64,000 nucleotides of DNA from an uncultured Candidatus Saccharibacteria bacterium (GCA_964649715.1 CAZYTH010000006.1:6341-70340), one strand, 5' to 3'; shown: positions 38,400 through 40,433, counted from the stretch's first letter. A program made the numbers and translations. The notes: generated by a model not told the origin, from the letters alone.

Positions 38400-40433
38400 A
38401 TGTACGAAAAGAACAAAACAAAAGACAGAATAGAGAAATTGCGCAAGGTGATAGATTATCATCGTGAGCTTTACCATATACACGACAAGCAAGAAATTAG
38501 CGAAGAAGCCCTAGATTCTCTTAAATACGAGCTCTTTAAGCTTGAAGAAAAATATCCCGAGTTTATAACGCCCGATTCTCCCACTCAGAGGGTTTCCGGG
38601 AAGCCGTTGGAAAAGTTTGAGAAGGTTAAGCACAAAATACCCCAGTGGTCTTTCAACGATGCTTTTTCTGAGGAGGATATCCAAGATTTTGACGAGAGGG
38701 TAAGGCGTTTCCTCCAAAAAGAAATGAGCGAGGTTGAACCTCACTCATTTCTAGGGGACATAGCTTACACCTGCGAGTTAAAGATAGACGGATTCAAGAT
38801 CGTTCTGGAATATGAAAATGGTCTTTTGAAAACTGGAGCGACAAGGGGCGATGGGACTATCGGTGAGAACGTCACTTTGAATGTGAAAACGATAGAATCA
38901 ATTCCTATCCGCTTGAAAGAACCTATTGATATTGTTGTTGAAGGGGAGATATGGACGAGCAAGAAATTTTTTAAGGAGATTAATAAAGAAAGAGAGAAGA
39001 ATGGGGAGGAGCTTTATGCAAACCCGAGAAACTTTGCCGCCGGAACTATTCGCCAGCTTGATCCGAAGGTGGTCGCGGGAAGAAAACTAGAAAATTTTGC
39101 CTATGATATAGGAAGCGCCAGTTTCCCGACGCCAGATTCTCAGTATGAGGAGTTAAACAAATTAAAGAGCTTGGGTTTTCGCGTGAACAAGCATTTTAAG
39201 CTTTGTAAAAATATTTCTGAGGTCATTGAGTATTGGAAAAAGTGGCAGAAGGACTCAGGAAAAGAAGATTATTGGATAGACGGTGTGGTTGTAAAGGTGG
39301 ACAGTAGTAAATATCAGGAATTGCTTGGTTATACGGGCAAGGCACCCAGGTGGGGTATTGCTTTTAAATTTAGGGCCGAGCAGGCGACGACGGTCCTTGA
39401 GGATATTCATATTCAGGTAGGGAGAACGGGCGTTCTAACTCCTGTGGCACACTTAAAACCAGTCAGGATTGCGGGGTCAACAGTATCTCGTGCCACTCTT
39501 CATAATGAGGACGAGATAAAAAGGCTTGATCTTAAGGTGGGTGATACTGTTATCTTGCAGAAGGCGGGTGATGTTATCCCGAATATAATTTCTGTTATAA
39601 AGGAACTTCGCACGGGAAAGGAAAAATTTTTCAAATTTCCGAAAAAATGCCCTGTGTGTGGGACTCCTGTTGTTCGCGAAGAAGGGGAAGTGGCGCACAA
39701 ATGTCCGAATCGGGATTGTTTCGCCAAGAAAAGAAGAAAAATGTATTATTTTACAGGGAAATCGGCTTTTGATATCGACGGACTTGGGCCGAAGATGATA
39801 GATTTGCTTGCCGACAACGGACTCATTTCTTCACCGATAGATATTTTTGATTTGAAAAAAGAGGATATGGAAGTGTTGCCTAGGATGGGCGAAAAGTCTG
39901 CCGATAACTTGGTACTTGCAATAGAAAAAGCGAAAGAAGTCTCATTGCCAAGATTCATTATTTCTCTCGGGATAGATGGAGTTGGAGAAGAGACCGCATA
40001 TGACCTCGCCAAGCATTTTGGCGATATTAAAAAACTTGAAAATGCGACAAGAGAAGAACTCTCTAGTGTTTATGGGATAGGAGAAGTGACCGCCAGATCT
40101 ATTTTTGAATGGTTTTCTGATTCCGCCAACAAAAATCTAGTCGCCGAACTCCGAAAAAGAGTAAGCATCACAAAAGAATCCACTTGGACTCCCGGAGTCC
40201 AAGAGGGCTTATTTTCCAACAAAATTTTTGTGTTTACGGGGACGCTCCCGACGCTTTCAAGAGATGAGGGCAAGAAAATGGTTCGCGAAAAAGGGGGTAA
40301 TGTGTCGGAGTCAGTTTCAAAAGATACAGATTATCTTGTCGCGGGAGAGAATGCGGGAAGCAAGCTGGAGAGGGCAAATAAATTAGGCGTTAATATTTTG
40401 AATGAAAAAGAATTTTTGAATTTGTTAAAATAG
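38400..40433 (+). CDS. ligA: NAD-dependent DNA ligase LigA, carrying an in-frame palindromic-element insertion
   Basis: KxDG adenylation motif '[10 protein letters not shown]', OB fold, Zn-finger '[24 protein letters not shown]', HhH region, C-terminal BRCT. The palindrome at 40181-40204 encodes '[10 protein letters not shown]' in the HhH-BRCT linker. Confidence 0.9.
40181..40204. repeat. Palindromic element copy inserted in-frame within ligA
   Basis: CACTTGGACTCCCGGAGTCCAAGA, identical core to the transposase-flanking palindrome. Confidence 0.75.

Follow-up and report, generated by a model that had tools for sequence, protein, structure and literature searches.

The ligA gene (NAD-dependent DNA ligase) of an uncultured Candidatus Saccharibacteria bacterium contains a short palindrome in its reading frame, and the same repeat flanks a Y1 transposase gene located 5.7 kb upstream. 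This palindrome was analyzed in a 64-kb stretch of DNA (GCA_964649715.1 CAZYTH010000006.1:6341-70340; 64,000 nucleotides [nt], ∼87% coding), hereafter called the window. The ligA gene (38400..40433, plus strand) encodes a full-length protein of 677 amino acids (aa) with the complete Pfam domain set, namely, the adenylation, OB, Zn finger, helix-hairpin-helix (HhH), and BRCT domains, and the protein matches Escherichia coli LigA (PDB 2owo) with an E value of 1e-167. The 23-mer CACTTGGACTCCCGGAGTCCAAG was found at 40181-40203 inside this open reading frame (ORF), and the palindrome in its full extent covers 25 nt (40181..40205), with one mismatch in the outer stem (CAC...GAG instead of CAC...GTG) and 24 of its 25 bases identical to those of another copy at 33793-33817. 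In the ligA frame, it is translated to S594-T-W-T-P-G-V-Q-E-G603, a peptide placed between the Pfam HHH_2 (residues 518 to 581) and BRCT (601 to 675) matches. Residues 595 to 601 form one of only two segments with a predicted local distance difference test (pLDDT) score below 50 in the AlphaFold2 model of LigA (mean pLDDT, 85) and are modeled as coil, preceded by a helix (575 to 587) and followed by a strand (609 to 613), which supports the flexibility of this linker. A first-pass annotation of the window had described the palindrome as lying in frame in the HhH-BRCT linker of ligA, with a core common to the transposase flanks and with LigA motifs continuing on both sides, and these points were borne out by the coordinates, the Pfam domains and their boundaries, the 2owo match, and the modeled coil.

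The palindrome is one member of a repeat family. Searching the window for the pattern at up to three mismatches returned seven sites (14 strand hits; sites starting at 33793, 33996, 34489, 34520, 40181, 41568, and 41602), compared with 0.00 in 100 shuffled controls, which excludes a chance origin. Misassembly is also unlikely, since the reading frame runs on through orthologous sequence on either side of the copies in LigA (2owo) and GatA (PDB 3h0l). All copies, referred to below as repetitive extragenic palindromes (REPs), are short palindromes with stems of 9 to 12 bp and a 1-nt center. The first four sites flank or fall inside the Y1_Tnp ORF. One (33793..33817), with a perfect 12-bp stem and a 1-nt center, is located 4 nt past the stop codon, and another (33996..34020) lies within the coding sequence and is translated as LGLPESKF at about codons 152 to 159. 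The remaining two form an inverted pair in the 5′ leader (34489..34543, 15 to 69 nt ahead of the start codon), the 24-nt arms of which are 100% complementary and separated by a 7-nt spacer; the arms combine ACTCC and AAACC cores in hybrid form, and the proximal one is followed by GTAG. A second inverted pair (41568..41623) occurs inside gatA, encoding Glu-tRNA(Gln) amidotransferase subunit A (40848..42305, plus strand; Pfam Amidase, E = 2e-142; 3h0l, E = 2e-130), where the 56 nt, with 22-nt arms and a 12-nt spacer, are read as DLDSRSPS-TNS-IGLRESKS. Both pairs have the inverted-doublet structure of REP doublets forming hairpins (REPINs), with folding energies of −49.9 kcal/mol (z = −10) upstream of the transposase gene and −48.1 kcal/mol (z = −11) in gatA, and the ligA copy is a singlet (−16.2 kcal/mol as an RNA hairpin; z = −2.9). 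Four of the seven copies are within coding sequences (one in ligA, two in gatA, and one in the transposase gene), so the family is not predominantly extragenic in the window. The element consists entirely of a 25-nt hairpin and shows no duplication at its borders, unlike a miniature inverted-repeat transposable element, which measures 70 to 300 bp and has terminal inverted repeats and a target-site duplication, and the Rfam search of the window matched only tRNAs. The window-type core contains no stop trinucleotide on either strand and can be read in all six frames, and the core type of a related locus (L004) contains one. Since stop-free 23-mers are common (35 to 50% of random 23-mers on one strand, by a rough estimate), six-frame readability was rejected as a sign of adaptation and is taken as permissive only.

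The transposase gene (33821..34474, minus strand), present once in the window, encodes a Y1 (HUH) protein of ∼215 aa with a conserved C-terminal extension. The protein matches Pfam Y1_Tnp (PF01797; E = 4e-9, 37 bits, cutoff 23), carries the HxH motif (HFH) at residues 81 to 83, and retains the invariant Y105/Y108. The best PDB match of its AlphaFold2 model (40 homologs; mean pLDDT, 89) in Foldseek was 4er8_A, the E. coli REP-associated tyrosine transposase (RAYT) with REP hairpin (E = 2.3e-6), followed by the TnpA proteins of IS608 and ISDra2 (2a6o, 2vjv, and 2xm3 included). Homologs numbered 861 at E ≤ 1e-5; among the 120 listed, every source name was that of a Patescibacteria/candidate phyla radiation (CPR) lineage or simply "bacterium," and some homologs bear the JGI name "REP element-mobilizing transposase RayT." The gene is located between pilin genes and a prepilin peptidase gene in a type IV pilus cluster (29000-37700; T2SSE/T2SSF, pilins, and prepilin peptidase) and is syntenic in the window and in the related loci L001 and L004, with 49 to 54% protein identity, as expected of a single-copy, vertically inherited gene; it was not found at the syntenic position in L002, L003, and L005.

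The association between this gene and the repeat was surveyed at 10 RAYT loci. An upstream REP was found in eight of them (∼35 nt ahead of the start codon in six); five loci combined a REP ∼35 nt upstream of the start with an internal REP and another just past the stop, and three more had the upstream REP together with one or two internal REPs. Internal REPs, positioned at about aa 151 and/or aa 62, occur in the RAYT genes of the window, L001 (5742-6416), L004 (4953-5609), L103, L041, L007, L061, and L017. GTAG adjoins RAYT-proximal copies in the window (copy at 34489, CAAGTGGTAG), L001 (GTAGGG), and L103. The inner stem differs among genomes with both arms changed in a compensatory manner, so that each RAYT has its own REP core, and seven genome-specific cores were recognized (ACTCC, AAACC, AGGTT, ACACC, ACACG, AACTC, and TTAGAAGCT). 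Moreover, the internal peptide QLGxxxSKL is conserved over 120 homologs with only its three central residues varying, and its back-translation, CAACTTGG...CCAAGTTG, corresponds to the outer stem in translated form. The internal REP is thus conserved in position throughout the family, with a core that matches each genome's own. A RAYT that carries its own co-varying REP inside its coding sequence is the most unusual side result of this analysis. The RAYT gene, its flanking and internal palindromes, the co-varying cores, and the proximal GTAG together indicate a REPtron rather than a Rickettsia palindromic element (RPE).

The setting of the RAYT gene in a pilus/competence cluster, and the occurrence of Haemophilus and Neisseria uptake sequences inside genes as well, would be in keeping with a DNA uptake sequence of the type IV pilus competence system. 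DNA uptake sequences, however, are short nonpalindromic words found about once per kb, whereas the present element is palindromic, is present only seven times in the 64 kb, within a span of 7.8 kb, and possesses a genome-specific core that co-varies with a Y1 transposase; we therefore give this explanation almost no credence.

The first-pass annotation had likened the element to the RPEs, in which palindromic repeats are also translated in frame, genes stay functional, and the genome is small. The analogy holds for the in-frame behavior, since LigA and GatA remain full length with all domains while containing the repeat. It fails for the remaining features. RPEs encode longer peptides and have no associated transposase, whereas the window element is accompanied by a RAYT gene and measures 25 nt (8 aa) when single and 56 nt when paired, compared with the ∼100 to 150 nt of RPEs (∼105 to 146 nt for the classical RPE-1, as tabulated from Ogata et al. 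2000 in PMC3184786). An added peptide relative to orthologs without the element, as in RPEs, is not seen in LigA, the linker of which is only 1 to 3 aa longer than in close orthologs, and amounts to 10 aa in GatA. A transposase-independent selfish palindrome that encodes a peptide module, as in Rickettsia, would account for translation in frame inside essential genes, but the short length, the tight linkage to and co-variation with RAYT, and the GTAG adjoining RAYT-proximal copies make it very improbable; a sequence relationship to RPEs was neither sought nor seen.

The size of 25 nt, the cognate RAYT-like gene, and the GTAG at RAYT-proximal copies place the element in the REP/RAYT class instead. 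As in the E. coli TnpA_REP system with its REPs and bacterial interspersed mosaic elements and in the Pseudomonas REPINs, a short GC-rich hairpin is combined with a single-copy Y1/HUH gene flanked by repeats, inverted pairs are able to form a long hairpin, GTAG is found proximally, and 4er8 is the best structural match. Unlike in those systems, the protein belongs to a distant clade (28 bits for the NCBIfam equivalog REP_Tyr_transpos, with a cutoff of 80) and has a conserved C-terminal extension, a REP is found inside the RAYT coding sequence, ∼40% of copies are intragenic (see below), and the host is a member of the Patescibacteria. The TnpA of IS200/IS605 elements also has the Y1 HUH fold and recognizes subterminal hairpins on single-stranded DNA, both of which are predicted for the window protein. 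In contrast to those elements, the window gene is single copy and syntenic at 49 to 54% identity, with hairpin-only copies dispersed around it, which is the behavior of a resident gene rather than that of an insertion sequence.

Whether the ligA copy was added to the protein or took the place of existing residues was addressed with an alignment of 60 Paceibacteria orthologs, in which the linker was measured from the last HhH helix to the first BRCT strand. The linker exceeds that of the nearest orthologs (P0002 and P0003; 77% identity) by only 3 aa and that of several others by 1 aa, some orthologs have a longer one, and the alignment with E. coli LigA (2owo) is free of gaps at the palindrome. 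The ∼10-aa insertion anticipated by the first-pass annotation was therefore not recovered, and the palindrome occupies or replaces part of the linker; with the linker length essentially unchanged, a simple insertion is not demonstrated and would require a compensating loss. The ligA copy may have arisen by insertion followed by the loss of neighboring residues or by replacement. The loop of GatA that holds the REP pair exceeds the corresponding loops of all five syntenic orthologs by 10 aa, and ∼10 residues that the orthologs conserve, an (E/N)YP... stretch, were displaced by the 56-nt pair.

The ligA genes of other lineages bear on the age of the linker copy. In the LigA of L001 (P0009; 72% identical), the 9-mer TCCACTTGG recurs with the same codon offset and precedes a degenerate hairpin, the segment being read as PSTWASGHQ. 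The folding of this hairpin was no better than that of shuffled sequences (z = −0.5), and it was rejected as a significant structure. L004 has a different palindrome with a 9-bp stem, TATCAAGGACGGTTCTTGATA, at the same place in the linker, and a perfect AAACC-subtype REP lies in this linker in the LigA of L109 (60% identical), where a different frame gives the reading LGNPVSK; no strong palindrome was found in the ligA genes of L002, L003, and L005. One explanation is that the linker REP is an old resident that predates the split between the window genome and L001 and has been kept at the current consensus by in-place conversion or reinsertion. The TCCACTTGG match with its degenerate hairpin, the L004 palindrome, the unchanged linker length, and the RAYT-internal REP, fixed in position as QLGxxxSKL yet matching each genome's core, are consistent with such a history. 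It nevertheless seems doubtful to us, considering that the L001 hairpin does not stand out energetically, that it is identical to the window REP at only 16 of 23 positions against ∼55% identity in the neighboring codons, that strong ligA palindromes are missing from L002, L003, and L005, and that a short-patch conversion mechanism is not known for REPs.

A second, unrelated palindrome of 33 nt (AGAAATGAGCGAGGTTGAACCTCACTCATTTCT; 38718-38754) was found in the window ligA, with a 15-bp stem containing one mismatch and a 12-aa reading. The loop ahead of the motif I strand (aa 105 to 118), in which it falls, exceeds that of the nearest orthologs by 6 aa. No other copy of this palindrome occurs in the window, and its inner core, GAGGTTGAACCTC, equals the REP core of the L004 RAYT. 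The same loop contains a REP with one mismatch in L110 (at about aa 110), a palindrome in L004, and REP-type peptides in P0045, P0054, and P0059. The recurrence of palindromes in the linker and in this loop indicates that LigA has two permissive sites that were repeatedly hit or kept. In addition, a further palindrome family, AGAAGCTsAGCTTCT, was observed in L004, with one copy in frame in ligA (FQEAELLG; 10330-10350) and a 41-nt double copy (20024-20064) downstream of a 1,687-aa ORF.

To describe the spread of the family, GTDB species representatives were scanned with TTGGAMWCCSGGWKTCCAA, which returned 102 stretches; none was nearly identical to the window, and its own genome is not among the hits. 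Sixty strict copies were defined by the flanks ACTTGGA...TCCAAGT, which were not part of the query. The flanked copies came overwhelmingly from Patescibacteria (Paceibacterota, Giovannonibacteria, Saccharibacteria, and others), and this palindrome family is widespread in that group. Several perfect, fully flanked REPs were also seen in records carrying other labels, including Lunatimonas salinarum (an isolate), Planctomycetes, and Bdellovibrionales (L085, L089, L007, L037, and L095), and L007 encodes a RAYT ortholog with 46% identity; such records could be misbinned or contaminating CPR contigs or could reflect horizontal transfer. Of the 60 strict copies, 24 (40%) fell well within a stop-free ORF of 200 aa or more; applied to random positions, the same rule gave 58% (binomial P = 0.006). 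Many host ORFs match conserved housekeeping families, and the Pfam matches are to families typical of TruB, ArgRS, class V aminotransferase, Mfd-like helicase, TatD, MiaA, enolase, aldehyde dehydrogenase, SecA, TsaD, Dus, RecJ, class I aminoacyl-tRNA synthetase, and others; a PDB search with the enolase-type ORF gave no match at E ≤ 1e-80. ArgRS-type hosts were found in four genomes, with two copies in one gene. Two metagenome-assembled genomes (MAGs) of Giovannonibacteria and one MAG labeled Saccharibacteria have the same REP at the same ArgRS site, between the N-terminal and catalytic domains (L010:3507, L034:4865, and L076:7499), and the perfect copy in L010 aligns to ALTNP..FTK of Campylobacter jejuni ArgRS (PDB 3fnr) without a net change in length. 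A metagenome scan with the exact core yielded a single 1.2-kb contig (L108; region 470-560), in which the REP is read as LGLPESK in a MurD-like ORF. This ORF also has an inverted pair of AAGGACsGTCCTT, which resembles the L004 linker palindrome.

Intragenic copies were often located between domains, and all three readings of the palindrome occurred among them. The frequent position at domain boundaries, together with the stable hairpin of the ligA copy, the loose terminator pattern matched on its antisense strand, and the recurrence of palindromes at two LigA sites in several lineages, would suit an exapted element, with a hairpin retained for ribosome pausing, mRNA stabilization, antisense termination, or RAYT binding. 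However, the hairpin is absent from this place in most orthologs, so that an mRNA-hairpin function is not favored. No terminator was flagged on the sense strand of ligA, domain boundaries are simply the most permissive positions, and the diversity of host genes and frames, with all three readings in use, speaks for tolerance rather than function. Exaptation is accordingly considered improbable.

Intragenic REPs as a class are already known. Di Nocera, De Gregorio and Rocco (2013) described GTAG and CGTC REP families with some members entirely within ORFs of known proteins, among them a DNA ligase from Opitutus terrae and a number of tRNA synthetases (PMC3733652). More than half of the intragenic inserts in that study were dimers, many resided in replication/repair and tRNA-related genes, the inserts were argued to lie in flexible linkers and loops, and RPE-4 and RPE-6 were classed as CGTC REPs (PMC3733652). 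The copies described here resemble those REPs in lying wholly in ORFs as singlets or dimers, with a DNA ligase among the hosts, and differ in lineage and repeat sequence and in that the LigA copy did not lengthen the protein. Moreover, the intragenic share here appears much higher, as most REPs in that study were intergenic (PMC3733652). The new elements are the host lineage, the large proportion of intragenic copies, a LigA copy that added no length, and a RAYT gene with a REP in its own reading frame; a search of the literature library returned no paper on REP/RAYT systems of the CPR.

Considering these results together, we regard it as likely that the ligA palindrome is a REP copy from a family with a cognate RAYT-like Y1 gene, carried as a neutral passenger in the linker, where it most likely replaced about 5 to 7 earlier residues. 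By analogy with E. coli TnpA_REP and the IS200/IS605 transposases, the RAYT would bind the REP hairpin on single-stranded DNA and would cut and join beside it, thereby seeding or maintaining copies, and those landing in disordered linkers or surface loops would be tolerated. Copies may persist in genes because little intergenic space is available and the encoded peptide is short, stop-free, turn-forming, and rich in Pro, Gly, and Ser. Several observations weigh against this explanation. All seven copies are confined to the same 7.8 kb, and GTAG does not adjoin the ligA copy (CCAAGAGGGC) or the gatA copies (GTAC and GTCG). The RAYT-like protein scores far below the equivalog cutoff given above, and its sequence profile retrieved no solved RAYT from the PDB, only RNase A noise. 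In addition, the LigA linker is not lengthened relative to orthologs, no closely related empty site was found in the databases searched (the closest LigA ortholog is 77% identical), and REP mobility and RAYT activity are deduced from homology rather than observed. More tentatively, and with less than even confidence, the Patescibacteria may possess a RAYT/REP lineage of their own, mostly resident within genes, with a hairpin readable in all six frames that persists in the interdomain linkers and loops of essential proteins, turns over in place at recurrent permissive sites (two of them in LigA), and is kept at conserved positions inside RAYT itself; the co-variation of the internal RAYT REP core with the dispersed copies would then imply concerted evolution of enzyme and hairpin.

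Other repeats were also observed in the window. A second GC-rich hairpin family, ATYCCCGYG-NNNN-CRCGGGRAT, has copies at 31555-31574, 31893-31912, and 32450-32469 and in L002 (2176-2195). One copy is intergenic, in a 600-nt repeat-rich gap (31245-31860) with the ORF artifacts RLRGND and PRRRES, and two are in frame near the N termini of tandem pilin genes, where they are read as SSPCRRGS and SSPCKRGS. An inverted repeat of 35 nt with 83% complementarity lies at 5394-5493; one of its arms overlaps the 3′ end of a tRNA (5337-5420), a 3′ fragment of which is repeated in reverse orientation ∼40 nt downstream.

These findings extend the host range of REP/RAYT systems, and the in-frame colonization of essential genes by REPs, to the ultra-small, gene-dense Patescibacteria. 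For the annotation of MAGs, peptides such as TWxPGxQ, LGxxxSK, and LExxxPS in conserved proteins are to be read as repeat derived and not as lineage-specific motifs. Moreover, REP copies map permissive sites in proteins, such as the HhH-BRCT linker of LigA and the loop before motif I, and a RAYT with its own co-varying in-frame REP offers a system for studying the co-evolution of hairpin and enzyme.

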